From IMG/VR virus record IMGVR_UViG_3300006133_000325: a stretch of DNA of 64,000 nucleotides. One strand, 5' to 3'. The stretch comes from a virus (lineage: Duplodnaviria > Caudoviricetes). Position numbers and translations under genes: made by a program. This document shows, piece after piece, positions 11,515-31,914 of this stretch; positions within the stretch are counted from its first letter, which is position 1; each line of letters begins with the position of its first letter. Below the pieces are notes generated by a model. It was not told the DNA's origin. It did not search any database and saw nothing but the letters and a program-made list of their open reading frames with translations.

Positions 11515-12354
11515 ATGAAACAAAACACACCAAAACGCAAGATAAAGGACAGTGTATTCACTAATTTATTTCAGGAGAAAAAATACCTGCTCCAGTTATA
11601 CCAAGCACTTCATCCAGAGGATTCCCAGGTAACGGAGGAAGATATCGAAGATGTGACACTCAAACATGTTCTGGTAGATGCTGATTACAATGATTTAGGT
11701 TTTTCGGTTGGCAACCGGTTACTGATACTGGTGGAAAGCCAATCCACTTGGACGTTTAACATCATTATCCGTGCGCTGATGTATTTGATACAGACTTATC
11801 ATGATTATCTGAAGCGCACCAACCAAAACCTATACGGAAGCAAAAAGGTGAACCTGCCGAAACCGGAACTGTATGTGATTTATACCGGAAACAGGACACA
11901 TATCCCAGATACCCTATCCCTCCAGAAAGATTTTTTTGATGGGGAAAAGATTGCTTTGGAGGCAGAAGTAAAGGTATTGTACCAAGAAAATGAGGTGGAT
12001 ATCATTGGGCAGTATATTATGTTCTGCAAGGTATACCAAGAACAGAGAAAGCAGTACGGAAATACGAAACAAGCAGTGACAGAAACCATCCGTATCTGTA
12101 AAAACAGAGACGTGTTAAAGGAATATCTGGAAAGCAAGGAACAGGAGGTTGTGGATATGATGATGACATTGTTTGATGATGAACAAATTTTAAAGGCTTA
12201 TGCCAAGGATATTGAAGATACTGCGGCTAGAAAGACAGCAGAGAGATTGATTAAAATAGGAAAAATGTCATTAGAAGAAATCGCATCATGTGTTCCATCC
12301 TTATCCCTTGAGGAATTAAAGGAATTGGAATCTAACATTATGCAGTTAGCATAA
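11515..12354 (+). CDS. Rpn/YhgA-like PD-(D/E)xK nuclease moron
   Basis: KDSVFTNLF, NDLGF..LILVESQST, RALMY, PELYVIYTG; C-terminal MSLEEIA HTH-like; promoter TTGTTT-17-TATCAT at 11434-11462. Confidence 0.75.
   Translation: MKQNTPKRKIKDSVFTNLFQEKKYLLQLYQALHPEDSQVTEEDIEDVTLKHVLVDADYNDLGFSVGNRLLILVESQSTWTFNIIIRALMYLIQTYHDYLKRTNQNLYGSKKVNLPKPELYVIYTGNRTHIPDTLSLQKDFFDGEKIALEAEVKVLYQENEVDIIGQYIMFCKVYQEQRKQYGNTKQAVTETIRICKNRDVLKEYLESKEQEVVDMMMTLFDDEQILKAYAKDIEDTAARKTAERLIKIGKMSLEEIASCVPSLSLEELKELESNIMQLA
12157..12354 (+). CDS. Putative in-frame intragenic antitoxin (RpnS-like, 65 aa)
   Basis: Strong internal SD AGGAGGT (12143-12149) 7 nt before in-frame ATG ATG ATG. Confidence 0.65.
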   Translation: MMMTLFDDEQILKAYAKDIEDTAARKTAERLIKIGKMSLEEIASCVPSLSLEELKELESNIMQLA

Positions 12355-12374
12355 ACCAATAAGTATTACCATCC

Positions 12375-12415
12375 AAAAAGCAAGTAATTAGAAAAGTCTA
12401 GTTGCTTGCTTTTTT
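12375..12415 (+). terminator. Intrinsic terminator of the Rpn moron
   Basis: AAAAAGCAAGTAATTAGA-aaag-TCTAGTTGCTTGCTTTTTT. Confidence 0.8.
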
Positions 12416-12440
12416 ATATTGTTTTTTTAAGGAGAAAAGA

Positions 12441-12653
12441 ATGAATCAATCAAACTTAGGTAACACAGAAAATGTAAAAGAAATTGAAATTTATGTTTAT
12501 GATAAAAAGGTTATCAATACTGTTATATCCATGCTCAAAAAAGTAAAAATAGAAGGCTTTGAGCAGGCACAATTATTAAGTGAACTTGGAAGGCTTATCT
12601 GTTGTCCTATCAAAGAAGATACTTTACTCTGTGATTTAGAAGAATACGAATAA
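12441..12653 (+). CDS. Small hypothetical tail-region protein
   Basis: AAGGAG RBS before ATG 12441. Confidence 0.6.
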   Translation: MNQSNLGNTENVKEIEIYVYDKKVINTVISMLKKVKIEGFEQAQLLSELGRLICCPIKEDTLLCDLEEYE

Positions 12654-12675
12654 GCTTTCTACTTTCAAAGGAAAG

Positions 12676-14337
12676 GTGGTGAAAGTTGTTTTGCCAGAAT
12701 TACAAAAAATAAATACTGATGTATTTATCAATTTAAGAGATCGGACAGAAAACATTATTATTTCTGCCAACCGCGGCGACGCACATTCTCGTACAATTCG
12801 TTTTAATTTTATTTATGAGGATGAGTTATATGAAATACCAGAAGGAATTATTGCTAGATTTATGGGAACAAGACCAGATGGGTGTGCAATTATAGAAGAA
12901 GAACCTTGTATAATCGAAGGGAATCAAGTTCTTTATGAAATGACACCTTATATCCTAAATATTTCTGGTGACGTGAGAGCAAAAATAGAATTACGCAATG
13001 AAGAAACCGAGCAGATTTTAACAACGGTTGCTTTCACTATTCATATTCCAAAAGATCCATTTGATGAAAATGCTATTATTAAAACAGATGAGTTTTCTAT
13101 CTTAAATGCTCTGATTGAAAAAGTTGAGGAAGCATTAGAAAATGTAGACGAGGCACTGGTTCAAGTAGAAGATAAAATTCAGGAAGCCGATGAAGCTATC
13201 CAGGAAATCCATACTACAAATGAGCAAATGAAGGAAGTCATAACAGAAGCAAATACCGTTATCGACAGTATGAACGATAAACTACAAGAAGCTGACACTG
13301 TTATTGATGAAATGGGCGAAAAACTCATAGAAGCAGATAACAAAATAGCGGAACTAGATGACCTACATGATGATATTAATGTTGCAATTAAAAATGCGGA
13401 AACTGCTACTACTGCTGCTAATAAAGCTACCGAAGACAGTAATGCTGCAGCAGAACGAGCAGACGATGCTGCCCAAAGAGCAAATGCTGCCGCTAAAGCC
13501 GCTGAAGATATCGTTACAAATGGCATTCCTGTTGCAACTACTACTATTCTTGGCGGAGTAAAAGCGAGTGAGCAAATTCATGTAGCAGAAGATGGCACTA
13601 TGAGTATCCTTTCTGTTCCAAAAGAAGCTCTTCCAGAGGACATTGGAAAAGGTGGATTAGAACAGTATGCTCTCTTCTCTTCTCTCCCATCTCAAGGGAA
13701 TGAATCTATTTTATATATCGTAACCGGGGATTCCGATGATAAAAATGGAATGTATTATTGGAACATTGCTACTTCTTCTTATCAGCAAATAGAAGCTGGC
13801 AGCGCTGGCTCTATTGTTGTGGATATTACATGGGAGGCATATCAAGCTATACCAGAAGATGAAAAAAACAATGGGGTTATTTATAACATTATAGACGAAA
13901 ACGAAACCGATATTGAAAACGTTAGCAATTCCGTTGTAAGGGATATTACTTTTGCTGAATACCAAGCATTATCAGACGAAGAAAAGAAAAACGGTACTAT
14001 CTATAATATTGTAGATGAAGATGAGAACAATACTTATAGGAGTGACCAGAAATTACCTCTTTCTTTATCTGTAGAGAAGTGGACAGAAGAAAATAGAGAA
14101 GAAATGAGGGAAATTGGTATCGCCTTTTGTAATAGCTATTCCACAAACATTGCATATTCTAATATCTCCTATGTAACAGCAATCGTTGAAATAACTAGTC
14201 GCATTGCTGCACAAACGTCTGGTATGCTAGATATATTGGAATACGAGGAAGGGGAGAATGGTTTTCTAATAATTAAATTTTTTGCAGAAAAGATACCAAC
14301 AACAGAAATACAGGTGTGTGTATTTATTCATTATTAA
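12676..14337 (+). CDS. BppU-like baseplate upper protein / tail fibre
   Basis: ANRGDAHSRTIRF N-domain, long coiled coil, PVATTTILGGVK motif, tandem DITxxxYQAxxxxEKxNGxIYNI repeats. Confidence 0.75.
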   Translation: MVKVVLPELQKINTDVFINLRDRTENIIISANRGDAHSRTIRFNFIYEDELYEIPEGIIARFMGTRPDGCAIIEEEPCIIEGNQVLYEMTPYILNISGDVRAKIELRNEETEQILTTVAFTIHIPKDPFDENAIIKTDEFSILNALIEKVEEALENVDEALVQVEDKIQEADEAIQEIHTTNEQMKEVITEANTVIDSMNDKLQEADTVIDEMGEKLIEADNKIAELDDLHDDINVAIKNAETATTAANKATEDSNAAAERADDAAQRANAAAKAAEDIVTNGIPVATTTILGGVKASEQIHVAEDGTMSILSVPKEALPEDIGKGGLEQYALFSSLPSQGNESILYIVTGDSDDKNGMYYWNIATSSYQQIEAGSAGSIVVDITWEAYQAIPEDEKNNGVIYNIIDENETDIENVSNSVVRDITFAEYQALSDEEKKNGTIYNIVDEDENNTYRSDQKLPLSLSVEKWTEENREEMREIGIAFCNSYSTNIAYSNISYVTAIVEITSRIAAQTSGMLDILEYEEGENGFLIIKFFAEKIPTTEIQVCVFIHY

Positions 14338-14353
14338 CAGGGGAGGTGTTGCA

Positions 14354-14833
14354 ATGCCAATTGGTAATATATCTGGAATCTGTCACACAGAAAAAAATGT
14401 CTTATCTAAACCTTCTCCAGAATTTCGTTATGACTCTAAAACTGGTTATCTCCTTATAAAAGAACAGAATATTAATGAAACAAACTCAATATCCGAAGTA
14501 GACAGCAATGAAGCATGGAAACCGCTAGGAAAGATCGGAATTACTTATCAAGGAGAATATAATTTAAGTCTTACCTATGAGCAATCAACCATTATCCGCT
14601 ATGCAGACGCTTCCTGGATATCAGTACAGGATGTTCCTGCACATAATGAACCAAGTGAGGATAGTGATTATTGGCAACTACTATCTAAGGATGGAACTAT
14701 CCTAACTTCTGGAGATAATATTTCTATTACAGAAAACGAAACGGGAACTCATACCATATCTGCAAATATAGGAACGAAAATTATGGTACAAGAAGAAGAG
14801 CCAGAGGATAAAACTGTTTTGTGGGGCTGGTAA
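14354..14833 (+). CDS. Tail-associated protein with a carbohydrate-binding-like module
   Basis: GGAGGTG RBS; YQGEY..Y..IIRY..SWIS..P..YWQLL pattern. Confidence 0.55.
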   Translation: MPIGNISGICHTEKNVLSKPSPEFRYDSKTGYLLIKEQNINETNSISEVDSNEAWKPLGKIGITYQGEYNLSLTYEQSTIIRYADASWISVQDVPAHNEPSEDSDYWQLLSKDGTILTSGDNISITENETGTHTISANIGTKIMVQEEEPEDKTVLWGW

Positions 14834-14866
14834 TAAAATAGAACTGTTTCACTAGGAGGTTGCATA

Positions 14867-15538
14867 ATGGCAATAAATCGCTGGGATACTGCAAATAATA
14901 TATACAAAGATTTACAAACTATAAGAAAATATGATTGTGACACGAATAATTGGATAGAACTTAATAAGGTAAAGGCACAAAAGAATGGACAATGGACGGA
15001 CTTGTGGAGTCAAAAACCAAAACCACTCTATTTATATAATGAAGGAGATGAATGTACTAACATTACTGGAGGGTGGAAAAAGACATGGTTAATACAAAAT
15101 TTGCCCCAAACAGGGGATTATTATATAAAAAGAAGTAATTATTTACAATGCTCCGATCCTAGTTCTAGTGAATTTTGTTTATGGCTATGGTTTCCATCTG
15201 TAATGATTGATTTTAGTAAATATTCTAAAATAAAATTTGAAATATCTCTACATGATGTATATTCTAATCCAGGCAGAGCAGGTTTAATGCTTCATCTATT
15301 TTCTAACCTACTATCCACTAGTAAAGCCCCCTTCCCACACGTTGATGGTACACCATCTCCTTCTAGGCTTGGACAATATGGCATTGTTTATCTTTCAACT
15401 GGAGAAAGCGTATCAAGGCAAATTTATTCGGTCAATATTTCTAATATTGGGCTGGTATGTCCTGCCGTTGGATTGGATGTATCTTATTGGCAAGATGGAA
15501 CAGGTACATGTGAAATATATAAAATTTGGCTAGAATAA
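14867..15538 (+). CDS. Putative receptor-binding/tail fibre tip protein
   Basis: AGGAGG RBS; LYLYNEGDECTNITGGW and IDFSKYSKI..IYKIWLE; AT-rich. Confidence 0.55.
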   Translation: MAINRWDTANNIYKDLQTIRKYDCDTNNWIELNKVKAQKNGQWTDLWSQKPKPLYLYNEGDECTNITGGWKKTWLIQNLPQTGDYYIKRSNYLQCSDPSSSEFCLWLWFPSVMIDFSKYSKIKFEISLHDVYSNPGRAGLMLHLFSNLLSTSKAPFPHVDGTPSPSRLGQYGIVYLSTGESVSRQIYSVNISNIGLVCPAVGLDVSYWQDGTGTCEIYKIWLE

Positions 15539-15601: not shown

Positions 15602-15763
15602 CGTAGGCTTTGGCTTGAAACACTTATACCTCATGTAAATATTATAATATATATGTCTAAATTTGTCAAATACTATTTTTTGAAATAAGGCTACCGCAAT
15701 CCCACTGGCTTTAGACGGTGGGTTAAGGTAGCCAAAAGTGGCGGTTTGTGTTATACTTGCGTC

Positions 15764-16168
15764 ATGGGAACATGGAAATCAAAAAACAGGCACAAATATT
15801 TGTTACAGTATCATATTATTTTTGTATGTAAATACAGAAAGAAGCTGTTTGCATCAGAACATATATCGGATGATATAAAACAGCTTTCGTACGAGATATG
15901 CCAGAAACATCATGTGATTATCAGATATATGGAAACTGACAAAGACCATATCCATTACATGATAGAAACAGAACCGACAATGTCTGTCAGTAAAATAGTA
16001 AATCTGATGAAGAGTTACACGACATACCATATATGGAAAAAGTATCAAAACTATCTGCGAAAGCATTTTTGGAAGGAGCGCACATTCTGGACGGATGGAT
16101 ATTTTGCGTGTAGCGTTGGAAATGTTTCGGAAGAAATGCTTAAAAAATATATAGAAAACCAGGGATAG
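15764..16168 (+). CDS. tnpA: Y1 HUH transposase TnpA
   Basis: YHIIFVCKYRK, DHIH (HUH), FWTDGYF, YIENQ. Confidence 0.95.
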   Translation: MGTWKSKNRHKYLLQYHIIFVCKYRKKLFASEHISDDIKQLSYEICQKHHVIIRYMETDKDHIHYMIETEPTMSVSKIVNLMKSYTTYHIWKKYQNYLRKHFWKERTFWTDGYFACSVGNVSEEMLKKYIENQG

Positions 16169-16184
16169 GGGGAGACGGCAGCAA

Positions 16185-17288
16185 ATGTTAAAAGCGTACA
16201 AATATAGGATATATCCAAATAATGAGCAGAAAGTGCAGATTGCAAAAACATTTGGCTGCTGCCGTTTTGTCTATAACCAGACTTTAGCACATAGGAAAAA
16301 TGCTTATGAAAAAGAAAAGAAATCTGTCAGCAGAACAGACTGTAATAATTATTGTAACAGAGAGTTAAAGAAGGAATATGAGTGGCTGAAGGAAGTGGAC
16401 AAATTCGCCCTTACAAATGCCATTTATAACATGGATGCGGCATTTCAGAAGTTTTTTAGGGAACATACAGGATATCCGAAATTCAAAAGTAAGCATGATA
16501 ACCATAAGTCTTATACTACAAATTTCACAAATGGGAATATTGCTGCAGATTTTGAGGACGGGAAGATAAAACTGCCAAAGTTAAAGCAGGTAAAGGCAAA
16601 ATTCCACAGGGAATTTGATGGACAGATAAAATCAGCCACAATTTCCCAGGTACCAAGTGGAAAATATTATGTGTCAATACTTGTGGAAACAGAACATGGA
16701 GAACTACCGCAAACAGGCAAAAATATAGGTTTAGATTTAGGCATAAAAGATTTATGCATTACGTCAGAGGGGAAGAAATACGAAAATCCAAAGACAATAA
16801 AAAAATATGAGAAAAAACTGGCAAAACTGCAAAGACAGCTTGCACATAAAGAGAAAAGAAGCAGAAATTATTATAAACAGAAAAGGAAAATCGCACGTTG
16901 CCATGAGAAAATTACAAATACCAGAAAAGATTATCTGCATAAAGTTTCCCATAAGATTATCAGCGAAAACCAAGTGATAGTTTCGGAAAACCTGCAGATA
17001 AAAAATATGGTAAAAAACCATCAACTGGCAAAAACAATATCAGATGTGTCGTGGTACGAATTAACAAGACAGTTAGGGTATAAGGCAGAATGGAATGGGA
17101 GACAGTACATAAAAATAGATACATTCTATGCAAGCAGCCAGATATGCTCAGCCTGTGGGTATCAGAATACAGACATAAAAGATTTATCCGTAAGGGAATG
17201 GATATGCCCAAAGTGCAGAGCGAAACATGATAGAGACATCAATGCTGCAAAGAATATATTGGCGGAAGGATTACGGCAGATAGCATAG
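16185..17288 (+). CDS. tnpB: RNA-guided endonuclease TnpB, catalytic residues intact
   Basis: KAYKYRIYP N-terminus, GLDLG (D), SENL (E), CSACG/CPKC zinc finger, DRDINAA (D). Confidence 0.95.
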   Translation: MLKAYKYRIYPNNEQKVQIAKTFGCCRFVYNQTLAHRKNAYEKEKKSVSRTDCNNYCNRELKKEYEWLKEVDKFALTNAIYNMDAAFQKFFREHTGYPKFKSKHDNHKSYTTNFTNGNIAADFEDGKIKLPKLKQVKAKFHREFDGQIKSATISQVPSGKYYVSILVETEHGELPQTGKNIGLDLGIKDLCITSEGKKYENPKTIKKYEKKLAKLQRQLAHKEKRSRNYYKQKRKIARCHEKITNTRKDYLHKVSHKIISENQVIVSENLQIKNMVKNHQLAKTISDVSWYELTRQLGYKAEWNGRQYIKIDTFYASSQICSACGYQNTDIKDLSVREWICPKCRAKHDRDINAAKNILAEGLRQIA

Positions 17289-17415
17289 GATAATAAAATA
17301 GGGATGGTGCAGCCCGAATTTACGCCTGTGGAGATAGTAGGTTACGAGGTCGATGAAGCAGGAAGCCCATTGGCTTTAGACAATGGGTAGTTCACATAAG
17401 GATACCATAATCCCA
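17289..17415 (+). ncRNA. TnpB omega-RNA 3' part plus flanking guide (5' boundary uncertain)
   Basis: Structured right end after tnpB ending TTCAC; guide would be the next ~16-20 nt, ataaggataccataat. Confidence 0.65.
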
Positions 17416-20132: not shown

Positions 20133-20972
20133 ATGCGCGGAAAAAATAATATTGTCCCATTACCAGGATTTAATACATCTGATGCCACTGCTACAGCAGA
20201 TAAAATTCTATCTTCATATACCGCTTATGGTGGCAACGGAAAAATAACTGGAACAATGCCTGATAATGGAGAAACTAACCATACCCTTCCCATTAACGGA
20301 AGTTATACGATACCTAAAGGATATCATAACGGAAGCGGCAGAATATCACAATCTGTTACTACAAAATCTGCTGAAACTTATACTCCAACCACGAGCAATC
20401 AAACTATTGCCGCAGGAAGATATTTGAGCGGCGACCAAATTATTAAAGGGGATAATAATTTAGTAGCTGGAAATATTAAAAAAGGGATTAGTATTTTTGG
20501 AGTAAATGGTAGTTATAATCTTTCAATAAGCGATGCCAAAGTTTTATCTGGTATGTCCCAGACAAGTTTCACATCCATCTCTCTTGCAAATAATTCTAGC
20601 AGAACTTTTACTCTTGAAGAAAAAATATCTACAATGCAGCAATATTTAATAAGTCCAGAAACTTTATATCTTGGTATATGGGGAGACTTAGAAGGAAGTG
20701 ATAGCATTATTTCATTTTCATCTTCACCATTAAATGATATTGATTTGCCTTCAATATGGCAATTTTTTACTCCTGGAGGGTATCTTAATGGTGATTGGTC
20801 TGGCGATAAAAGCTATAATATGCGTCTATATACTGATAGAGAAGCTAATCTTTTTGGATGTTATCTAAAATTAACATTATTATCGGATAGTCAAATCAAA
20901 GTAGAAAATAAAACTGGACATATCATCAAAAAGTTAATGTTTAACGTTTATAGTGTAGACTTTAAAATTTAA
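20133..20972 (+). CDS. Tail fibre protein
   Basis: SDATATADKIL, TGTMPDNG, TIPKGYHNGSG, GDNNLVAGNIKKG.SIFGV. Confidence 0.7.
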   Translation: MRGKNNIVPLPGFNTSDATATADKILSSYTAYGGNGKITGTMPDNGETNHTLPINGSYTIPKGYHNGSGRISQSVTTKSAETYTPTTSNQTIAAGRYLSGDQIIKGDNNLVAGNIKKGISIFGVNGSYNLSISDAKVLSGMSQTSFTSISLANNSSRTFTLEEKISTMQQYLISPETLYLGIWGDLEGSDSIISFSSSPLNDIDLPSIWQFFTPGGYLNGDWSGDKSYNMRLYTDREANLFGCYLKLTLLSDSQIKVENKTGHIIKKLMFNVYSVDFKI

Positions 20973-21004
20973 AAGGACTCTAGTTTTTCAACTAAGTCCT
21001 TTTT
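20971..21004. terminator. Bidirectional terminator between convergent genes
   Basis: AAAAGGACT..AGTCCTTTT. Confidence 0.7.
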
Positions 21005-21017
21005 CATTACAATATTT

Positions 21018-22694
21018 TTATCTTCCATTTATCCTTGCTAAATTTGAATAATATAGTTGATTTTCTCTGTCCATTTCTGCTTTTTCATAAGTCTCTACTA
21101 ATTTCTCCAAATTCGAAATTTCTTCACTTGCATAATAACTTGCTTCTAATTCATCCAATTCCTTTTGTGCTGCTTCCATTTTTGATTTTTCTATTCGAGT
21201 TTGCTTCTTTGCATCCTCGGAATTATCACCAGACAATGCTACGATTCTTTTTTGACATTGTGTAATAATTTTTAATAAATCTGAACGTCTATTTCTATAA
21301 GATTCTTCTGTCCCATAATATGGAGTAGTATTCCTACGGATTTCTGCTATTTTTTGATCGGTATCCCTTCTCATATCTGCCACCTTCAACCGAATATCAG
21401 AGAGTGCTTTTTGATGACGTGCCTCTTCTTCTGCTACTGTCATAGTTACTTCTGGTATAGTTGTTGTACCAGTATTAACAGGAGGTATAATATTTGTGTT
21501 TGTTGGTGGTATTTGATTATTAGAGGTTGTATTTCCTAAAACTATTGCCTTACACGTATAAGTAACTCCGTTTAATGTGGCAAATATCTTACAATCCCCT
21601 TGCGAAACCCCAATTATATTAGCAGAATTACCATTAGTTGATAATATGGTTGCAACGGTTGGGTCACTCGTTTTCCAAATAATATTTTGTGATGGATCGG
21701 TTGCATATAAGGAAATCTCACTTATTATATTGCTAGAGTCTAGGTGTATGACAATAGTTTTTGAAGTTAGAAACGGATCTAATACCGCAATTTCTACCTC
21801 GCAGGTTTTATCTCCTATTTTTGCAGAGATTTTAGAGCCTCCCATAGAGATACCTGTCACTACTCCATCAGAAGAGATACTTGCTATAGATGGCTTTTCA
21901 GAACTCCAAAAAACTTCGATGTCAGATGAAACATCTGGACTCCATATAAGATTATTCTTTTCATCCACCACTGACAATTGACACCTGGCGCCTGGTGAAA
22001 TAGTAAATTGAGTTGCAGCAATGCGAAGTTTCACATTTTTTAGTTTATCATCAACATCTGTTTCTGCTACTTTGTTTTCATTAACTTCAGAGTTTTGGCT
22101 ATTATCTTCTTGCTCTTCCTCCGTATCATCATTATCTTTTATTTCAATTGCTTCTCCTGATACTGTAATATCACAACTGTAATTTTTCTTACCTACTTTG
22201 GCAGTTATGATTGTTTCTCCTTCTTCAAGGGCTGTAACAACACCATTTTTTGAAACTATAGCAACAGATTTATTAGATGTTGTCCATTTGACACTTTGCT
22301 TCGTATCTTTTAATTTCAAAGTAATCGTATCACCTGTCTCTAAAACTGCCGATTTTTTACTAAGAGTTGGTGTCTCTACAATTACTTTACATACATATTT
22401 TTTGCCATCTACTGTTGCTGTTACTTTTGCATTTCCCTTTTTTACCCCTTTTACTCTACCTTTAGAAGTAACAGTTGCTATTTTTTTATTGCTAGTACTC
22501 CATTTTACCTTCTTTTTCGTTCCTGAAATTTCAAGCTGCGCGGTTTGACCCTTTGTTATATATAAAGTTTTTTTATTCAACTTTATTTTTGAAGCCGCCT
22601 CTGCTGTAATCTTTTGTTCCATTGCTGGAAAATTATAAAAGATAGTTTGCAATAAAGCGAAACACAACATTAATAATACTACTTTTTTCTTCAT
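21018..22694 (-). CDS. Secreted Big_2 (Ig-like) repeat protein with a TMP-like C-terminal helical segment
   Basis: GGGAGG RBS; signal peptide ending AEA; four WxxSxxxxA Big_2 units; C-terminal VALSGDNSEDAKK matches TMP. Confidence 0.8.
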   Translation of the reverse strand: MKKKVVLLMLCFALLQTIFYNFPAMEQKITAEAASKIKLNKKTLYITKGQTAQLEISGTKKKVKWSTSNKKIATVTSKGRVKGVKKGNAKVTATVDGKKYVCKVIVETPTLSKKSAVLETGDTITLKLKDTKQSVKWTTSNKSVAIVSKNGVVTALEEGETIITAKVGKKNYSCDITVSGEAIEIKDNDDTEEEQEDNSQNSEVNENKVAETDVDDKLKNVKLRIAATQFTISPGARCQLSVVDEKNNLIWSPDVSSDIEVFWSSEKPSIASISSDGVVTGISMGGSKISAKIGDKTCEVEIAVLDPFLTSKTIVIHLDSSNIISEISLYATDPSQNIIWKTSDPTVATILSTNGNSANIIGVSQGDCKIFATLNGVTYTCKAIVLGNTTSNNQIPPTNTNIIPPVNTGTTTIPEVTMTVAEEEARHQKALSDIRLKVADMRRDTDQKIAEIRRNTTPYYGTEESYRNRRSDLLKIITQCQKRIVALSGDNSEDAKKQTRIEKSKMEAAQKELDELEASYYASEEISNLEKLVETYEKAEMDRENQLYYSNLARINGR

Positions 22695-22725
22695 AAAAAA
22701 TTCCCTCCCAAATAATATTAAATTT

Positions 22726-22813
22726 ATTTTATTCCTTATTTTATATAAAGTCAATATAGAAACCATATATTGTATGAAATCCTATTGACTTTTTTCATCG
22801 GATTAAGTAAACT
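22726..22813. promoter_or_regulatory. Divergent sigma-A promoter pair
   Basis: - strand TTGACT(22754-22749)-17-TAAAAT(22731-22726); + strand TTGACT(22785-22790)-17-TAAACT(22808-22813). Confidence 0.75.
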
Positions 22814-22849: not shown

Positions 22850-23989
22850 ATGAAGAAAAGAAAACATATTTTAGGGTTGTTGCTTATTGTAGCAATGCTA
22901 CTTTCTCTTCTACCCTATCAAAGAGCGGAAGCTGCCGCTAAAAAGTATCTTGTTATCTCTTATGATGATGGGAACTATTGGGGATATCATGATATGGTAG
23001 AAAGAACCTCTGATGGGGCTTTAATGATTCCAGCAAAAAAATTTGCAGATAATTTCTGGTTGGAGTATAAAAATCTTGGAAACGGGAATTTTACTCTTAC
23101 CGACAAAGAAACTGGAGCAACCTGTACCTATCAAAGAGGAGCAAAAGAATATTCTTATACAAAATATTTTTTTGCAAGTTTGTCTAAAAGGCAAAATAAC
23201 ACAGCGAAATATGCTCCAATGCTTAGTAATAAAACAAATATGATTCATTGTAGTGCTGTTTCTCCTTTGTTTTATTGTAAGTATTTTTCTGCTTCTACTG
23301 CAACAGAATACAAAGCAAAAGGTTATTCTGGAGTTCTTTTATATTCAAAATATCCATTATCCGATTCTGACCTTCCTCCAATTTCTTATATTGAAAATGC
23401 AGAGGAGTTAGGTTTAATCGAAAAAGAGGATATCAAAGATCCATCTGAAAATGACACCGATGACAAAAAGGAACCTACTCTCGGCGAAATTATTGATTCA
23501 AATTTAGACGCACTAAAAACATATATTATGACATATGGCGGCACTAACAAGAATGGAGACAAAATTATAAATTATTATTATAGAGATGTTCTTCCAGACG
23601 GAGATGTATCAGAATCAGCTTGCGCAATAGCCTTAAATGAATCCAATGGCGAAATGACGTTTATATACAGAAATACATTAGATAACGTCGAATCTGCCAT
23701 AACATTTATTTTAAACCCAACAAACTCAGCTACTAAAACAACAGTTAATTGTGTATTGGCAGATATGGAATACGGGCTAGGATTTAGCGCAAATTCGCAA
23801 ATGTATATTGCATCATATAATGAGGAAGACTTATATTTTGTTAAGGAACAAAGCATTTATATGACAGACGACACAATAAACAAATTAGCAAACATAAACT
23901 TAAAGCTCGCTATAAACCTACTAAATATAATGCTTTATGATAAAATTGGTCTAACATTGCCAGACATCGGTTTTTTATTATATGAATAG
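22850..23989 (+). CDS. Secreted protein of unknown function (moron)
   Basis: Signal peptide MKKRKHILGLLL..AEA; own promoter and terminator. Confidence 0.7.
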   Translation: MKKRKHILGLLLIVAMLLSLLPYQRAEAAAKKYLVISYDDGNYWGYHDMVERTSDGALMIPAKKFADNFWLEYKNLGNGNFTLTDKETGATCTYQRGAKEYSYTKYFFASLSKRQNNTAKYAPMLSNKTNMIHCSAVSPLFYCKYFSASTATEYKAKGYSGVLLYSKYPLSDSDLPPISYIENAEELGLIEKEDIKDPSENDTDDKKEPTLGEIIDSNLDALKTYIMTYGGTNKNGDKIINYYYRDVLPDGDVSESACAIALNESNGEMTFIYRNTLDNVESAITFILNPTNSATKTTVNCVLADMEYGLGFSANSQMYIASYNEEDLYFVKEQSIYMTDDTINKLANINLKLAINLLNIMLYDKIGLTLPDIGFLLYE

Positions 23990-24619: not shown

Positions 24620-26531
24620 ATATAAAGAAAAATTGGCTGACCTAACTGCCAAAAATCCAGAGTTGGGAGAAGCTGCAGCAATGCTTATGTCACGTTCCAT
24701 CCAAGCTGGTACAAAAATCAATGAACTGGACTACAATGAAGAACCTCCTGAAAAACTATGTTTTCAAATTTTCAATCGTACCATTACGATTGATACTACT
24801 ATCAAACATATCGTCGTACAAGGTGATACTAATAGCCGCAGAATTACGTTTGAATTATCAAGATATTTTGACGAAATCGATCTTTCTACTAAGCAAATGC
24901 GAATATATTATATTAATGCCGAAAAGAAATTTGGCACTACCCCCATTGAATCCTTTTCCATTTCAGAAGAAGATGAATCCAGACTGTTTGTAACCTGGTT
25001 GGTAGAGGGAGGGCTTACTACTACTGCTGGAGATATTGCCTTTGCACTTGATTTTTACGAAGTAGATACAGACGATTTTATCATTTATCGTTGGCAGACT
25101 ACAGCAGCACATTTCAATGTAGCAAAAGCGATTAGTGCCTTGGAAGGTGCGACGGAGCCGGATTATCGCTATCAAATTGATTTCATCAGTGAATTTGAAG
25201 GCTACGAAGATTACGAAGAGTTACAGGCGGAACTTGGAGTAGAAATTGAAGATAGAGTTGTCATTATGCCTTCTGTAGAAAATCTTGTAATTCAATTAGA
25301 TACCATGTCTAGGGGTATTGAATATACCATGCCACGCTATTTCGACGGAATGGATATGTCTACTAAAACTATCATTATTCAATATATCAATGCGGCTGGG
25401 CAAACGGATTGCGCATTTGCTGCAAACGTGAAAGTCAAAACAGATACGATATCCTTTACTTGGATTATTGATGGAAAGGTGACAATCAAGCCTGGAATGG
25501 TGACATATAATATCGCTTTTATTGGCTATCATCAAAACGGAAAATTTTACAACTGGCAGACTGCTCTTAGCTACATTTTTGTAAAAGACGGAATCCTTGT
25601 AACAGATGGAATTGATGAACCCTGTCCAAGCTGGCTGCATTCTTTACAGATACAAATTGATAGTGTCGTGAAAAAAAGCATATATTATCTCAACCAAACT
25701 ATTCTGATGAATGAACAAATCCAGGAAGAAATCCTACAAGTAGGGGAACGAATTGAAGAATTGTCAAAGCTAACAGATGGCATTACCGCTGATCTTTCCA
25801 CTCAAATCGAAGAAGTGAAAAAGGCAACCGAAAACGCAATTGCAGTTACAGAAGCTGCCACAGAAAAATTAAATGATATGGAAAAATTATATAATTCCAT
25901 TATGCAAAATACTTTAAGCACGATTGAAATAAAAATGGAAACTACGACTGACATCAAGCAGGAGTATGGAAATACCGTTGTAGGAAATGTCGTATCTTGG
26001 AGCTTTAATCCTAGCTTTACTCCAGCCTCACAGGAATTGAATGGAGAAATGATTGATTCTTCTGCCACTTCTTTTGAGGATCTGACTATTATAAATGAAG
26101 ATAAAAATTATGTGCTGGTAGTAAAAGATGCTATTAGAACCTTATCTGCCAAAATTGGGATAAAATTTTATCACTCGATCCGTTGGTGTACTGCAGCGCA
26201 ACCATCTGATGTTGCTATTGCAGATGGTTCCTTCCTTTCCGCTATGGATTTTTCTTTACAGGACAATGTAAGGACTATCCTATCCGTCCATGCAAATGAT
26301 GGGGAATATATTTGGTTTGCCTGTCCACATGATATTTCTGCTGGAACACAATTCTACTTCTCTTCCGTTGCTGGTGGATTCAGCTTATATAAAGAAGCTT
26401 TCTCATATGAAAATCAGTATGGATATACTACCACATATGACCTATATAGAAGTGATAATCACTCACTTGGCAATGTTATTGTTCGGATTGGAAATATCTT
26501 ATATGGAAAGGATGGTGTCACTCATGGCTAA
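24606..26531 (+). CDS. Baseplate protein with two tandem BppU-like domains
   Basis: QGDTNSRRITFELSRYFD.IDLSTK and QLDTMSRGIEYTMPRYFDGMDMSTK, each ending WQT. Confidence 0.7.
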   Translation: MELIKYKEKLADLTAKNPELGEAAAMLMSRSIQAGTKINELDYNEEPPEKLCFQIFNRTITIDTTIKHIVVQGDTNSRRITFELSRYFDEIDLSTKQMRIYYINAEKKFGTTPIESFSISEEDESRLFVTWLVEGGLTTTAGDIAFALDFYEVDTDDFIIYRWQTTAAHFNVAKAISALEGATEPDYRYQIDFISEFEGYEDYEELQAELGVEIEDRVVIMPSVENLVIQLDTMSRGIEYTMPRYFDGMDMSTKTIIIQYINAAGQTDCAFAANVKVKTDTISFTWIIDGKVTIKPGMVTYNIAFIGYHQNGKFYNWQTALSYIFVKDGILVTDGIDEPCPSWLHSLQIQIDSVVKKSIYYLNQTILMNEQIQEEILQVGERIEELSKLTDGITADLSTQIEEVKKATENAIAVTEAATEKLNDMEKLYNSIMQNTLSTIEIKMETTTDIKQEYGNTVVGNVVSWSFNPSFTPASQELNGEMIDSSATSFEDLTIINEDKNYVLVVKDAIRTLSAKIGIKFYHSIRWCTAAQPSDVAIADGSFLSAMDFSLQDNVRTILSVHANDGEYIWFACPHDISAGTQFYFSSVAGGFSLYKEAFSYENQYGYTTTYDLYRSDNHSLGNVIVRIGNILYGKDGVTHG

Positions 26532-27843
26532 AATACGATTAGCACAAGAAATTGTGCCTGCTAGCGATGGTTTTGCCCTTGTGGATGCTGAAAATATTCG
26601 CGGCGGAATCCATTCCTTTAAAACATGGGAAGAAGTAAAAATGTTAAAAGAAGACTTCCGAAAAATAGGAATGTTAATTTTTATTGAATCAGAAGAAACT
26701 TATTACAAACTACTTCCTTCTGGAGAATTTGAAGTTATCACAGATATAGATGGTGCCGTCCAGGAAGCTATTAAGGGAGTTGTAAAGTTTGAGGATATCA
26801 CGGCTGGCGATAACATTATTTTAGACAAGACAGATAACAAATTAGTGATTGGAGCTATTGTAGATGGAGATTTACCTGCCAATAAAGTATTTTGTGAAGA
26901 GGTTATTGATATCACAGAAGAATTACCACAGGTTAATATTACAACGACCAATAACCCATCCTTAATGAAAAACAAACAAGATGTAACAGACAATGAACTC
27001 ACTACTGAGGATAAAACAATCGTCGGTGCAATCAATGAGGTGTATCATGGAATGAAAGAAAAAGAACGAGAGGCTATTGCTACAAATATTGGAAGTCCTG
27101 CTTCTAGCCAAAACACAGCTTATGAATTGTCTAATCATATTTTAGCTTGTAATATCAACGCAGCAAATTCCTTGCGTGCAAATGGAGTTGAGATTACAGG
27201 AAACCCACCAACCTACTATGAAATTGTCGCTGCTATGCAAAAAGAATTTGGAATAGGTGGCGGGGATGGTAATGGTGGTTCTTCTTCTGAAAGTGGAAAA
27301 TACGGACGTATGTGGTCGAAAACCGTCAATACTATCACAGGTGATTGGCTTAGTTATTATTTTCAACTTTTTGGAAATGGATATACAACTACAGAGTGTA
27401 AAAACCATGCTACTGCAAACTCTCTTCCAAAAGGAGAATTTCGTATTGCCGTACCAGAACTATTTGATAATATCCTCATTACTGGTGAAATGTATATGGG
27501 AAGCGCAAGTTATGGAAGGTATTGGGAAAATAATACCTATAGTAAATATGTAAAGGATTTTTATTTATTCTTTTTGAAAGCCCCTGCCAGATTCGCAGAT
27601 AGTATGTCTGATATCAAAGACGGTCGATACGCGTTCCTTCTTACTACGAACAGCGATCCCGACTATGACAAGTTAGGAGCTACTTATAAAACTGTTAGCA
27701 CCTTAACCATTAAAACAGGCTATATGATTTCTTATGTCAGCCAAAATAATCAGCATTATGTATCTTATGAATTGAATGGTTCTACTAATTTTTCTCAATA
27801 TTGGGATTCCTATTGTAAAAATATCTATGGCTGGAACAACTAA
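26524..27843 (+). CDS. Tail fibre-related protein
   Basis: ALVDAENIRGG, LTTEDKTIVGAINEV fibre motif; ATG overlaps the previous gene. Confidence 0.65.
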   Translation: MAKIRLAQEIVPASDGFALVDAENIRGGIHSFKTWEEVKMLKEDFRKIGMLIFIESEETYYKLLPSGEFEVITDIDGAVQEAIKGVVKFEDITAGDNIILDKTDNKLVIGAIVDGDLPANKVFCEEVIDITEELPQVNITTTNNPSLMKNKQDVTDNELTTEDKTIVGAINEVYHGMKEKEREAIATNIGSPASSQNTAYELSNHILACNINAANSLRANGVEITGNPPTYYEIVAAMQKEFGIGGGDGNGGSSSESGKYGRMWSKTVNTITGDWLSYYFQLFGNGYTTTECKNHATANSLPKGEFRIAVPELFDNILITGEMYMGSASYGRYWENNTYSKYVKDFYLFFLKAPARFADSMSDIKDGRYAFLLTTNSDPDYDKLGATYKTVSTLTIKTGYMISYVSQNNQHYVSYELNGSTNFSQYWDSYCKNIYGWNN

Positions 27844-27859
27844 GGTGGTGATATGAAAT

Positions 27860-29458
27860 ATGATGAATTATGATAGTTTATTTACAGATTCAGAGGATAC
27901 GTTACAAAAAATCGAAAAAATGGCAATATTAAAAGATGGGGAGGGAAGCTTTTTCTTCCCTGTCACTTGTACGGCTGGAATTTATGATATGGAAGGGATT
28001 ACTCTTGCAGAACGCCTCAAACGATTGCACGATTTAGCAGCACAACGGCAAATTGTAGTATTGGAAGACAGTACATATGATAAAACGTCACTTCTCTCCT
28101 ATCTTCAATCTATTCTATCAGATCAAGATTTAACAGGAGATTCACTGGCTTATGTTCGATTGAGCAACGCAGAAACTATATTGTTTCATGGAATTGTAAA
28201 TGCCGATGTGATTGTTTTCAAATTCCATGACAGGTTATTTATCTGGCTTATAGATGTTTCTACGGGAAAAAGATATCATGCCAATATAGATAACGCAAGC
28301 ATTACTATTGGATGGCAGGAAGAAGTAACGTATTCGATTGACTTAGAAGAAGAACAGAAATATGTTACAAAAGGATATGTTGATAGTCAATTAAACGAGC
28401 TTACTGATATGATCAATGAGGATATCAAGAAAACGATTGATTCTATATCTACAGAATTATCAAAAGTTCGCATTGATATGTTGCAGGAAATAGATCGGAT
28501 AATTAAGGCACAAAATGAGTTAAATAAAAATACCTATGTATCACAAACTTATTTTAATGCAGAACTTGAGAAAATCAAAGAAGAAATAAACGGTTCTATT
28601 GATGTTAAGAATCTAGAAAAGATAGTTGGAAATCCAGAGAATTTAGAAACAACAGATAAGTCTTGTTTGGTGAGTGCTATCAATGAGGTTTTTCAGTCTG
28701 GCAATAATTTCAAAAGTAGCATCAGGGATACAATTATTGCCAAGGATGAATCTATTATAATTCCTGAAAAACCAACTCTGAATGATTTGACTAGTTCAAT
28801 TGAAAAGCTAAAACCTAGTACCTATGCAAATGATGCTACGGCTATTGCAGAAGATATTTTAACTGGGAAAAGCGCCTATACTGGGGATGGATTAGTTGAA
28901 GGAGTTATGCCTGTTAATGAATTGAGTGGTACTACTATTACTCCAGGGACAGCAAATATTATTATACCCAAGGGATATAGCAGTGAAAATATTACAGTTG
29001 CTGGCGACGCTGATTTGATTGCGGAAAATATTATGAAGGGGAAGGATATATTTGGAGTAATGGGAACACTGGCAGCGAGTAGTGGTATGCAGATGGCTAG
29101 TGGAAGTATAAATAATATAATAAATATAAATACAATTAGAAATCCATCTAATACATCATTTACTATTCCTATAAACTTATCTTTTAATCCTTCTTATGTA
29201 TTTTTAGAAATAAGCGATTTCAGAATACAAACCAATACAGCTTCAACTTGGATTGGTTTGTCTGGATATTCTTTTTTCATTAGTAATTTAAAAAATACAA
29301 ATATACATAGAATATCATCTTCTAGTTCTTGTTGTCTATATTTTAAATTTAATTCTATATCTTCATCAAGAATTATTATAGATTTAGTCTTTTATCACTA
29401 TATAAATAGTTATTATTATCTTAGAACTAATTCTAATTGGTATGCTTTTGGATATTAA
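27860..29458 (+). CDS. Tail fibre / receptor-binding protein with AT-rich tip
   Basis: LETTDKSCLVSAINEV, NDATAIAEDILTGK, GDADLIAENI..IFGV; ends WYAFGY. Confidence 0.7.
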   Translation: MMNYDSLFTDSEDTLQKIEKMAILKDGEGSFFFPVTCTAGIYDMEGITLAERLKRLHDLAAQRQIVVLEDSTYDKTSLLSYLQSILSDQDLTGDSLAYVRLSNAETILFHGIVNADVIVFKFHDRLFIWLIDVSTGKRYHANIDNASITIGWQEEVTYSIDLEEEQKYVTKGYVDSQLNELTDMINEDIKKTIDSISTELSKVRIDMLQEIDRIIKAQNELNKNTYVSQTYFNAELEKIKEEINGSIDVKNLEKIVGNPENLETTDKSCLVSAINEVFQSGNNFKSSIRDTIIAKDESIIIPEKPTLNDLTSSIEKLKPSTYANDATAIAEDILTGKSAYTGDGLVEGVMPVNELSGTTITPGTANIIIPKGYSSENITVAGDADLIAENIMKGKDIFGVMGTLAASSGMQMASGSINNIININTIRNPSNTSFTIPINLSFNPSYVFLEISDFRIQTNTASTWIGLSGYSFFISNLKNTNIHRISSSSSCCLYFKFNSISSSRIIIDLVFYHYINSYYYLRTNSNWYAFGY

Positions 29459-29543
29459 AAAGAGGTGATATTTCCTTTAAACATTCTCTTAAAATTAAAG
29501 TTAGTATAATTAGTTCTTCTATTACTGCTATAGGCACAGGTTT

Positions 29544-29729
29544 TGAGGATTTTGTTATATTTTGTATAAATATTCACATATAAAAAGATGGTTATTTTCA
29601 ACCTATTATCTTATTAAGTGTATTATAACTAGTGTATCTTCTTCGGGTTTTGCTATATATGTATATCCTGATACAAATACTTATAATGCTATACAAATTA
29701 ATTATGGAAAGCGATATGGTATTGGTTAA
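29544..29729 (+). pseudogene. Relic of an alternative fibre-tip domain
   Basis: Short frame ..CIITSVSSSGFAIYV..KRYGIG* parallels ..FNSISSSRIIIDL..WYAFGY* of the preceding gene. Confidence 0.4.
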
Positions 29730-29755
29730 GTTTGTTTAAAGAAAGGAAATTTATT

Positions 29756-30022
29756 ATGAAAACATTAATTATATTTGATAATAACGGAACCATCTACTAT
29801 CAAGCCACTGGCGATATCTTGGAACCAGCAGACGGCGTAAATTTTATCTGGGTAGATGTTCCAACAAACTCATATGTAGAATCTATTGATATGAGTTCTG
29901 GTAAACCCGTAGCAGTTATCAAGGAATTTGAACGTCCAAAAGAGGACGCTTTACAAGAACAAATAGATGATATCAATGATGTTTTATTAGACCTAATTCT
30001 TAGCAAAGATATGGAGGTGTAA
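29756..30022 (+). CDS. Tail fibre assembly-type small protein
   Basis: MKTLIIFDNNG.I..Q; GAAAGGA RBS; follows the fibre gene. Confidence 0.55.
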   Translation: MKTLIIFDNNGTIYYQATGDILEPADGVNFIWVDVPTNSYVESIDMSSGKPVAVIKEFERPKEDALQEQIDDINDVLLDLILSKDMEV

Positions 30023-30023
30023 T

Positions 30024-30179
30024 ATGGGGATTATCAAATTTCTGGCAAGTAATATTAAAAAGGGTAAAACCACATACGAGCAAGTTATTCTATCTCGTCC
30101 TGACTTAAAAGATGAATTATATTCTTATCTAATAGAAACTGGTTTAAGCCATTTGATTACAGAAGGTGTCCAGTCATGA
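30024..30179 (+). CDS. Small fibre-chaperone-like protein (51 aa)
   Basis: GGAGGTG RBS; MGIIKFLASNIKKGKTTYEQV..LKDEL. Confidence 0.55.
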   Translation: MGIIKFLASNIKKGKTTYEQVILSRPDLKDELYSYLIETGLSHLITEGVQS

Positions 30180-30337
30180 AGCAATATAAAATAAGGCATA
30201 ATGCCATGTATTCAGTACTATATTATGGATATCATACTACAAAAGAGATAACAAAAGAAAACCTCCAAGCTGCCGTAAAACGAAGCTGGATTACGGTAGA
30301 CGAGATGGATCTAATTTTGAGGGGAGATGAAGAGTAA
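30176..30337 (+). CDS. XkdX-like small protein (53 aa)
   Basis: LQAAVKRSWITVDEMDLI; overlaps both neighbours. Confidence 0.6.
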   Translation: MKQYKIRHNAMYSVLYYGYHTTKEITKENLQAAVKRSWITVDEMDLILRGDEE

Positions 30338-30615
30338 TGTTAAAACTATTCAAAAAAGCTACGAAAAAACCGCTGTCAAAACAAGCAGCTTTTTCTAAAC
30401 GAATTATTCCTATGATTATTGCGGCTATTATGTTGTATACAATCGTCGCTTTTATTTTGCAGTTTGTCGTACAAGTAGAAATTTCTCCTACTCTCACAAC
30501 ATGTTATTTTGGATTTTGGACAGTTGAAATCGTTAGCCTTATGACAATTAAGGTAAGTAAGGTAAAAAACAAATATGAAGACAGTATTGCATCTGAAAGT
30601 GATTTTGAAAATTAA
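30337..30615 (+). CDS. Putative holin
   Basis: 92 aa, two TM segments, basic N-terminus, upstream of the endolysin. Confidence 0.65.
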   Translation: MLKLFKKATKKPLSKQAAFSKRIIPMIIAAIMLYTIVAFILQFVVQVEISPTLTTCYFGFWTVEIVSLMTIKVSKVKNKYEDSIASESDFEN

Positions 30616-30727
30616 TTTTCTTTAAAATGATTCATTTAAAACCTCCTCAAAATAATCATTGCTATTTATAAAAAAACATGATAAACTATTGCTATTATAA
30701 TTAGTTTATAAACACTATGGAGGAATT

Positions 30728-31627
30728 ATGGGAAGCTGGAGTGACATTTTACAAGAAATTCAAGACACACAATCGCAATTTGATTACATAAGGAAAAAAT
30801 ATTTAAAGGAGTTATCAAATTACACAAAAAGAAATGTAATCACCTATTATTCTGGATGGCTTAATAAACAAGGTATTTTCAACGTCAATATTAGCGATGC
30901 TGATATGACTGGTTTTATGAATTGTATAGATGGTATGGATTGTTCTAAAGGTGTTGATTTAATTTTACATACTCCTGGTGGCTCACCAGAGGCGGCTGAA
31001 TCCATAGTAAATTATCTACGAACAAAATTTAACTCGGACATTCGAGTAATTGTTCCTCAACTTGCAATGTCTGCGGGAACAATGATTGCTTGTGCCGCAA
31101 AAGAAATTATTATGGGCAGTCAATCTAGTTTAGGTCCTATTGATCCTCAATATAATGGAATTCCTGCATATAATATTAAAATGGAATTTGAGGAAGCAAA
31201 ACAAGATTTATTAGATAATCCAAACAATGCCCAATATTGGGCTATAAAACTACAGCAATATCCAGCCGCATTTATGAAAACTGCTATTGATGCTATTGAT
31301 CTATCGGGAAAATTATTAGAAGAATGGCTTGGTTCATGTATGTTTAATAAAAATATTCCAGACGACAATAAGATTATCAATACAATTGTATCAAAATTGA
31401 ATGAGCATAAAGACTCTAAAACCCATGGAAGACATCTTGGTGCAACTTTTTGTAAAGAAATTGGCTTAAAGATTGTTATGTTAGAAGATGATGAAGAACT
31501 TCAAGATAAAGTTTTATCTCTTCACCATTCTTACATGATTACTTTTGACGCTACACCAGCCATAAAGATTATTGAAAATCAAGATAAAAAATCAATGATA
31601 TCCACTATTCCACCAACAATGAGGTGA
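30728..31627 (+). CDS. SDH/SppA-class Clp-fold serine protease (moron)
   Basis: LILHTPGG, AMSAGTMIA (Ser), LGPIDPQ, THGRH; promoter TTGCTA-17-TAAACT at 30659-30687. Confidence 0.85.
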   Translation: MGSWSDILQEIQDTQSQFDYIRKKYLKELSNYTKRNVITYYSGWLNKQGIFNVNISDADMTGFMNCIDGMDCSKGVDLILHTPGGSPEAAESIVNYLRTKFNSDIRVIVPQLAMSAGTMIACAAKEIIMGSQSSLGPIDPQYNGIPAYNIKMEFEEAKQDLLDNPNNAQYWAIKLQQYPAAFMKTAIDAIDLSGKLLEEWLGSCMFNKNIPDDNKIINTIVSKLNEHKDSKTHGRHLGATFCKEIGLKIVMLEDDEELQDKVLSLHHSYMITFDATPAIKIIENQDKKSMISTIPPTMR

Positions 31628-31632
31628 TTATA

Positions 31633-31827
31633 ATGAAAACTATAACAACAGAAGAAATATTAGCACTATATAAAAAATGTGATCTTGACTCTTCGTCAAA
31701 CTTCGCTATACGAACGATGATAAACACAGGTAATTTATCGAATCAATTAAATACTAATTATGAATTCTTTAACAAAAATATTATGCAAATAAATAATGCT
31801 ATTCCTAGACGAAATAACCAAGAATAA
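31633..31827 (+). CDS. Small Asn-rich partner ORF of the protease
   Basis: GAGGTG RBS overlapping the protease stop; followed by a terminator. Confidence 0.6.
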   Translation: MKTITTEEILALYKKCDLDSSSNFAIRTMINTGNLSNQLNTNYEFFNKNIMQINNAIPRRNNQE

Positions 31828-31863
31828 AACACATAAAAGAATGTACTAAAAATTATAAGTCTC

Positions 31864-31891
31864 AAAAAGAGGTCTCTATGACCTCTTTTTT
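31864..31891 (+). terminator. Intrinsic terminator
   Basis: AAAAAGAGGTC-tctat-GACCTCTTTTTT. Confidence 0.85.
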
Positions 31892-31914
31892 GTTTGCAAA
31901 AAAGGAGGTAAATT

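Follow-up and report, generated by a model that had tools for sequence, protein, structure and literature searches.

The window analyzed here, the whole 64,000-nucleotide (nt) stretch of IMG/VR record IMGVR_UViG_3300006133_000325 (Duplodnaviria; Caudoviricetes), is an SPbeta-like phage region that encodes a YomG-like tail protein, an amidase (31915–32823), and an integrase (32899–34119), followed by NrdD and a dUTPase; DNA of this window was found in mouse-gut metagenomes of several studies. Two open reading frames (ORFs) in the window share a domain. One, on the plus strand (777–6389), encodes a tape-measure protein (TMP) of 1870 amino acids (aa) that matches phrog_4211 (E = 1e-17). The other, on the minus strand (21018–22694), encodes P0001, a 558-aa exported modular protein with a C-terminal helical hairpin homologous to a segment of the TMP. 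An initial annotation of this DNA had described P0001 as a secreted moron protein carrying a copy of a segment of its cognate TMP, a candidate TMP mimic for superinfection exclusion. This interpretation was partly supported: P0001 appears to be an exported moron product with a TMP-homologous hairpin, but not a mimic of the cognate TMP. As judged from the sequences, the resemblance between the two proteins is one of shared ancestry, involving an old domain that is also present in bacterial surface proteins, and not the result of a mimicking copy.

Translation of the minus strand confirmed the 558-aa ORF at 21018–22694, as initially annotated; a longer reading of 582 aa, starting at 22766, is also available. 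The best promoter-like site of the region (TTGACT-17-TAAAAT; 22726–22754, minus strand; 10 of 12 consensus positions matched) falls within this 24-codon extension, which favors the ATG at 22694 as the start codon. A putative ribosome binding site (GGGAGGG, 22703–22709) is located 8 nt upstream of this ATG. The initial annotation had assigned the gene its own σA promoter. Promoter-like sites in this AT-rich region are no more numerous than expected from shuffled sequences, and the promoter of P0001 is only plausible, from its position and from the quality of the consensus match. At the other end of the gene, a hairpin terminator common to both convergent genes (20971–21003; 14 bp, −14.9 kcal/mol, z = −5.2) begins 15 nt past the P0001 stop codon. 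The gene thus forms a self-contained antisense unit within the late region, as had been proposed. Contigs from one mouse-gut metatranscriptome sample match 21187–21560 and 22119–22397 of the P0001 gene without mismatches; these contigs carry neither strand nor level information and the library may contain carried-over DNA, but they are compatible with transcription of the gene. Lysogen-specific expression was also considered from RNA runs X18 and X19, where the tail genes at 12001–15335 and the late genes at 24674–32000 were uncovered; this pattern was rejected as evidence, since parts that lack coverage in these contig sets carry no weight.

The predicted P0001 protein starts with a signal peptide (residues 1–33; 22596–22694), read from the sequence as MKKK, a hydrophobic core, and a putative AEA|AS cleavage site, in agreement with the initial annotation; relatives of P0001 present the same VEA/AEA-A site. 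By reading, the leader contains no lipobox, as its sole Cys lies in LLMLC-F with Leu at position −1; P0001 therefore lacks the lipobox Cys that characterizes Ltp-type lipoproteins, and AEA|AS is the likely cleavage site. The signal peptide is followed by two immunoglobulin (Ig)-like domains (residues 34–181; 22152–22595; Big_2 scores of 45.5 and 35.8 bits) and by a variable middle cassette (residues 182–415; 21450–22151) that consists of an acidic linker, Ig3, Ig4, and a Pro/Thr/Asn linker (residues 385–415), the last of these as initially noted. Ig3 passes the Big-like model at 36.7 bits, while Ig4 reaches only 17.5 bits, below the cut-off of 22.8; three of the four Big_2 domains that had been reported are thus above the Pfam cut-offs and the fourth is not. 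As a whole, P0001 scores 95.9 bits against a gathering cut-off of 22.8, placing it in the Big_2 family (PF02368/PF22359). Its N-terminal 350 residues are ordinary Big_2/Big-like repeats of the type found in proteins of phages and bacterial surfaces, whereas none of the Pfam, NCBIfam, and PADLOC models includes its C-terminal hairpin domain. At E of 0.1 or better, all Pfam matches of P0001 were to Ig-like families, no recognizable wall or membrane anchor was identified in the protein, and a related-locus search with the whole of P0001 returned a match at the Big_2 level only.

The C-terminal domain (P0003; residues 416–558; 21021–21449), delimited with a family profile and AlphaFold2, contains 143 residues predicted to form three helices (P0003 residues 5–40, 48–72, and 78–142), with a TPYYG loop between the first two and an SGDNS turn before the third (predicted local distance difference test score (pLDDT), 96.9; predicted template-modeling score, 0.80). 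Because helix 3 equals helices 1 and 2 combined in length, we read this domain as a long hairpin with a first arm that is broken by the TPYYG loop. The corresponding segment of the TMP was predicted to form a plain hairpin that turns at LSGDDS (pLDDT 82.8 overall and 95–97 near the turn); a helical hairpin, as inferred in the initial annotation for the TMP segment, is thus predicted in both proteins. Searches of Pfam, NCBIfam, PADLOC, and a protein atlas with the hairpin yielded nothing above noise, and a tblastn search against 50,697 phage records yielded no match. A sequence search of the PDB and Foldseek searches of the PDB and BFVD returned generic long hairpins only, none at E ≤ 0.001; some TMP models reached a template-modeling (TM) score of 0.71, yet with E of about 0.1, and the weak PDB sequence hits included designed bundles and keratin. 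The receptor-binding domain of colicins E3/E9, Vipp1/PspA, and the EmrA adaptor are similar to the hairpin in overall predicted shape (TM 0.43–0.56), but none of them was found at E of 0.001, and this fold analogy is no evidence of a common function. Prediction of a hairpin homotrimer (three copies, alignment A2) gave a score of 0.00, which speaks neither for nor against self-association.

Several comparisons support homology between the C-terminal end of P0001 and the TMP segment. The two peptides aligned in the initial annotation were reproduced by translation of 21299–21144 (minus strand) and 4728–4883 (plus strand), with identity at 21 of 52 residues. In BLASTP with composition correction, the match extended without gaps over 73 residues (P0001 residues 464–536, 21087–21305, minus strand; TMP residues 1316–1388, 4722–4940), 27 of which (37%) were identical (48.9 bits, E = 1e-9); this result answers the call for a pairwise significance check. 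The second-best pairing in the helix-rich, 1870-aa TMP scored 21.9 bits and provides an internal control for the noise expected among coiled coils. Alignment of the exported family with the TMP by hhalign gave a probability of 97% (E = 1.2e-10, 121 columns), and a hidden Markov model (HMM) built from eight relatives, with P0001 left out, matched TMP residues 1290–1412 at 47 bits; in a six-frame search of the window, the same model found no further match besides the P0001 hairpin and the TMP. In comparison, ClpB-sized ORFs (about 869 aa) in 400 genomes scored just 22–27 bits with family profile A1. Based on BLASTP, hhalign, HMM, and AlphaFold2 results, the TMP copy of the domain comprises residues 1289–1411 (4641–5009, plus strand), a segment that maps to positions 2255–2382 of the phrog_4211 profile. 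From these sequence comparisons, the homology is real. P0001 itself is not a TMP (it is a 558-aa antisense-encoded protein with a signal peptide) and has one domain in common with TMPs; P0003 falls outside phrog_4211 (E = 0.76), though it aligns at the corresponding profile positions (2246–2376).

An exhaustive phmmer search of 1.8 billion representative sequences with P0003 identified 16 hits, all of them C-terminal domains of proteins of 150–570 aa and none of them TMPs; nearly all presented an N-terminal signal-like hydrophobic segment. The N-terminal modules of these relatives vary and include Big_2, SLH, Cu_amine_oxidN1, and a dockerin-like pair with Cys-rich repeats, although the SLH calls represent weak precomputed Pfam hits and the dockerin-like pair and Cys-rich repeats were read by eye. 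Judging from these sequences, the hairpin represents the module that stays constant across a family of exported proteins. A search from the TMP side identified 45 TMPs (1444–3207 aa) that carry the module, located approximately 260–460 residues from the C-terminal end where this distance was measured; all five of the long proteins from an earlier profile search that were tested proved to be phrog_4211 TMPs. In a maximum-likelihood tree, 19 exported and 33 TMP domains were split by a single branch (100/100) that was present in each of the 200 bootstrap trees checked, and this split was retained when the tree was built on the central 63 columns (100/99). The P0001 domain is sister to P0005 (99/90) within the exported clade (100/100), and a profile built without P0001 scored 119 bits over its residues 419–556. 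Two motifs specific to the exported clade, E..RH in helix 1 and TPYYG(S/T)E in the loop between helices 1 and 2, are present in P0001 as EEEARHQ and TTPYYGTEE, while the TMPs lack the TPYYG loop and hhalign places a 5-residue gap there. By the C-terminal position of its domain, its placement in the tree, and its clade-specific motifs, P0001 belongs to the exported family.

Exported members are rare. A search of 400 genomes sampled from the class returned none, indicating a sparse family, and only two of 401 genomes of the bacterial family encoded one, as compared to a TMP-type match in about 24 of the 401. Three exported members (L002, L003, and G462) are located in ordinary chromosomal housekeeping surroundings, and others are near Bro-N or resolvase/integrase genes or on contigs too short to judge. 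P0007 is flanked by genes for ABC transporters, dipicolinate synthase, and a two-component system; P0006 follows FtsK, RodZ, and MiaB and adjoins a protein with a weak SLH hit; and the G462 member, which combines a signal peptide and four Big_2 domains with a divergent hairpin, has a Schlafen-like helicase on one side and a MATE pump on the other, with PPDK and pyruvate kinase nearby. The prediction that hits would be limited to TMPs and secreted prophage morons thus failed. The G462 gene (L062:6982–8550) directly follows a single gene in which a weak GIY-YIG match, the best stretch of which fails the E-value limit alone, is combined with a Schlafen group 3 helicase domain; genes of this type are often discussed as candidates for defense functions.

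While the 11 identities in 13 positions that the initial annotation had singled out as a core are there as counted, they represent the family-wide consensus of the hairpin turn and are not specific to the cognate pair. ALSGDDSEEAK is the turn consensus for the family as a whole. In the TMP clade the consensus reads AALSGDDSEEAKAK, and several exported members have it in common with the TMPs, among them P0005 (MVLSGDDSEEAKS) and P0013 (AAYSGDSSQEAKA); positions conserved in both clades include core Leu/Tyr residues as well as L72, D75, S77, and A80. By general helix-capping rules, the turn core looks like a pair of helix caps, with a Gly terminating the first helix and an Asp/Ser-x-x-Glu cap initiating the second. 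Structural constraint on this tight turn between two long helices probably explains why the resemblance between P0001 and the TMP is still visible. Against the TMP of the window, P0005, which comes from another sample, scored 53 bits and P0007 scored 47, as compared to 44 for P0001. Among three pairs of exported and TMP domains from the same genome, the cognate TMP ranked 1, 2, and 22 out of 34 TMP domains; the window pair ranked first with 57.4 bits versus 55.5 and 54.7 for the next TMPs, and the exported hairpin of the rank-22 pair no longer contains the SGDDS turn. The initial annotation had also predicted co-variation with the cognate TMP, which was not seen; exported and TMP domains do not interleave, even on the central 63 columns. 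The further claim that P0001 holds a mimicking copy of its cognate TMP segment is therefore unsupported, since the clades split cleanly and the turn is the consensus of the family.

Three pairings of turn residues were considered as local co-variation and rejected, namely SLEN in P0007 and the G002 TMP, AAY...VQ.LK.SL in P0013 and P0036, and ND.T...KRK.LE in P0017 and P0024; as these were seen by eye and the tree on the central 63 columns splits cleanly, we attribute them to chance or to parallel retention. The exported domain (NALSGDTSLENQKRL) and the TMP (NALQGDDSLENRKKL) of genome G002 (loci L013:427–2181, minus strand, and L002:10793–11242) both present an unusual SLEN following the turn, where SLEA is found in the G462 TMP. 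The tree does not support a special relationship between the two G002 domains, and their common SLEN is regarded as a coincidence.

The P0001 gene behaves as an accessory unit. A second prophage (L009) carries an allele with a 99% identical hairpin at the same place (L009:10001–11677), while no P0001 homologue was found in the span from the TMP to the amidase in any of four related phages (L031–L034) with a TMP module 78% identical to that of the window. With a promoter-like site and a terminator of its own and its presence in L009 and absence from L031–L034, the gene conforms to the description of a moron that encodes an exported Ig-repeat protein, as first proposed. The signal peptide, Ig1, and Ig2 are 99–100% identical between the two alleles, and the codon changes in the hairpin are mostly silent (10 synonymous versus 2 non-synonymous); residues 182–415 (21450–22151) are only 63–77% identical. 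Conserved ends around a divergent middle point to an exposed cassette that is swapped or evolves fast, and these sequences suggest recombination or diversifying selection acting on this cassette.

Based on these findings, we consider it probable that the P0001 gene is an accessory gene of an SPbeta-like prophage in mouse-gut Lachnospiraceae and that its product is a Sec-exported protein with a hairpin of old family origin. The gene appears to be transcribed on its own, and its product would be exported through the Sec pathway by means of its signal peptide, with four Ig-like repeats joined through a low-complexity linker to a C-terminal helical hairpin of about 140 aa. The hairpin family would consist of two old sister branches, one being a fixed module near the C-terminal end of the long TMPs of SPbeta-like Lachnospiraceae phages and the other a constant C-terminal module of exported or wall-associated proteins with interchangeable N-terminal surface modules. 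The hairpin may serve a cell-envelope protein as its working or docking end and bind an envelope partner or itself, while the fast-varying Ig3-Ig4 cassette may be the part that is exposed and under selection; P0001 may alter the surface of the lysogen. Several observations weigh against this interpretation. P0001 presents no recognizable wall or membrane anchor, so that its retention at the surface is assumed; no solved structure or named family fits the hairpin beyond generic long hairpins; and the RNA-library contigs give neither strand nor level and come from a library that may contain DNA. In addition, a function purely unrelated to TMPs would predict neither that the top TMP match of P0001 is the TMP of its own phage, by 2 bits, nor the co-occurrence of exported members and module-bearing TMPs in two of two genomes against a baseline of about 6%, which represents a weak hint.

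One alternative, rather unlikely in our view, is that P0001 acts in superinfection exclusion as a TMP mimic, with a displayed hairpin that co-assembles with the hairpin of an incoming TMP or takes its host partner and thereby blocks DNA entry; chromosomal members of the family would then be host-encoded versions of the same defense. The homology to the TMP module is real, and the hairpin is constant behind interchangeable anchoring modules, as would be expected of a working end. In the family sample, the two other genomes that encode an exported member both encode a module-bearing TMP as well, as compared to about 24 of 401 genomes overall, and of five genomes from the G002 genus, one carries both and the remaining four carry neither; this co-occurrence concerns two genomes only, with no control for lineage or genome size. 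The cognate TMP ranks first or second of 34 in two of the three pairs, but the third, with an exported hairpin that lacks the SGDDS turn, ranks 22nd. Co-variation is missing, the tree has a single clean split, the 37% identity of P0001 to its cognate TMP is no higher than that of relatives (P0005 scores higher), and the conserved core looks like helix caps. P0001 also lacks a lipobox or membrane anchor that would keep it at the membrane face where TMPs act, and PADLOC returned no match.

Two known systems provide precedents for such an exclusion function. One is the superinfection-exclusion lipoprotein Ltp of Streptococcus thermophilus phage TP-J34, which has the TMP as its target (Bebeacua et al. 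2013, cited in PMC3952083). Ltp is prophage-encoded, exported, and made by the lysogen, as P0001 would be, and the TMP is its proposed point of action; Ltp is however a surface-exposed lipoprotein, while P0001 lacks a lipobox and has Ig-like domains as its sole Pfam matches. CwpV of Clostridioides difficile is a surface protein with anti-phage activity (PMC4737114). CwpV protects against phages and is located, as proposed for P0001, on the cell surface in a species of the Clostridia, but it is a conserved host protein with phase-variable expression, whereas P0001 is encoded by a prophage gene; the two are likened by description only.

More generally, the domain has two homes, namely TMPs that phages inject into the cell envelope and proteins that the same bacteria export there. 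It is conceivable, though we regard it as unlikely, that exported hairpins serve as tape-measure decoys on the cell walls of Lachnospiraceae and related Clostridia, both bacteria and prophages. Such decoys would, on the same doubtful footing, be held by whichever anchors are at hand (SLH, dockerin-like, or Cu_amine_oxidN1 modules or Ig stalks). Their hairpins might then, with no greater likelihood, capture or mis-assemble the hairpin of an incoming SPbeta-like TMP or block its envelope partner. If true, they would represent a new class of entry-level defense by structural homology to the attacker's own protein.

It is very improbable that P0001 is a virion or tail-accessory protein (an Ig-like decoration or fiber) and not a product of the lysogen. 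The gene does sit among tail and late genes, and PHROG families of Ig-bearing structural and tail proteins match its Ig part, but its signal peptide, opposite orientation, promoter-like site, and terminator argue for a separate unit; furthermore, the gene is absent from the closest phages and its relatives are found in non-phage loci. Recent copying or gene conversion from the TMP gene of the same phage into the moron can practically be set aside. Although the TMP that scores highest against P0001 is its own, the matching stretches are only 50–54% identical at the nucleotide level (54% over the peptides initially aligned), and 14 of the 21 identical residues there are encoded by different codons, bearing out the initial remark on synonymous differences; a recent copy is excluded because of this DNA-level divergence. 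The P0001 domain also lies beside P0005 within the exported clade, far from the TMPs, and contains the E..RH motif and TPYYG loop that the TMPs lack. Chance likeness of two charged coiled coils is similarly dismissed because of the BLASTP, independent-profile, and ClpB-sized-ORF controls, even though both regions are Lys/Glu-rich helices and the weak PDB hits are to designed bundles and keratin, as the composition-corrected E is 1e-9 versus just 22 bits for the next TMP segment, the independent profile scores 47 bits versus 22–27 for ClpB-sized ORFs, and the position of the module is conserved in 45 TMPs.

A number of additional observations were made in the window and in related phages. The gene divergent from P0001 (22850–23989, plus strand) encodes a 379-aa protein with a signal peptide and no match in Pfam, PHROG, NCBIfam, or PADLOC; window-identical metatranscriptome contigs also lie on this gene, within 23056–23962. 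Its L009 homologue is represented by two ORFs (112 and 256 aa) and may be broken there. At the ends of an IS605/TnpB element (15680–17400), the depth of contigs from RNA libraries and of probable DNA contigs is far above that of neighboring genes. In some of these contigs, 15740 is joined to 17298, so that 1557 bases are missing and nine other letters stand in their place, a junction that looks like an element-free or otherwise filled form of the site. In L028 (1–10000) and L031–L034 (3793–9943), PhageMin_Tail ORFs precede the long TMP ORF by a few kb, and the genes in between are unrelated. A 467-aa radical SAM gene (L031:22511–23914) is located directly upstream of the endolysin gene in related phages; the window differs at this position.

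TMPs are among the least understood essential phage proteins, and to our knowledge almost nothing is known about conserved modules inside them, enzymatic inserts aside. The present analysis defines a conserved and confidently folded hairpin module that a large group of phages of gut Clostridia carry in their TMPs. Its sole other carriers found here are exported cell-envelope proteins of the same bacteria, providing a handle on the envelope contacts of the TMP. The closest precedent is found in mycobacteriophages, where TMPs contain embedded host-related motifs (an Rpf-like motif 1 and motifs 2 and 3; Pedulla et al. 2003; Piuri and Hatfull 2006, PMC1796659); a link to cell-wall hydrolysis exists for motifs 1 and 3 at least, and peptidoglycan degradation was shown for the host proteins related to motif 3 (PMC1796659). 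The module described here differs in that it is a non-enzymatic helical hairpin, in that the hosts are Lachnospiraceae, and in that one relative shares a prophage with the TMP. It thus represents a non-enzymatic Firmicutes variant of the mycobacteriophage observation, with an unnamed domain family that is new, and extends this observation to the Firmicutes and to a non-enzymatic domain. The striking protein match within this one genome comes down to a structural turn that is conserved throughout the family. Should the exported proteins interfere with phage entry, they would represent a new kind of defense; if they do not, they would represent a new family of surface proteins with an anchor or working end that was shared with phages long ago.

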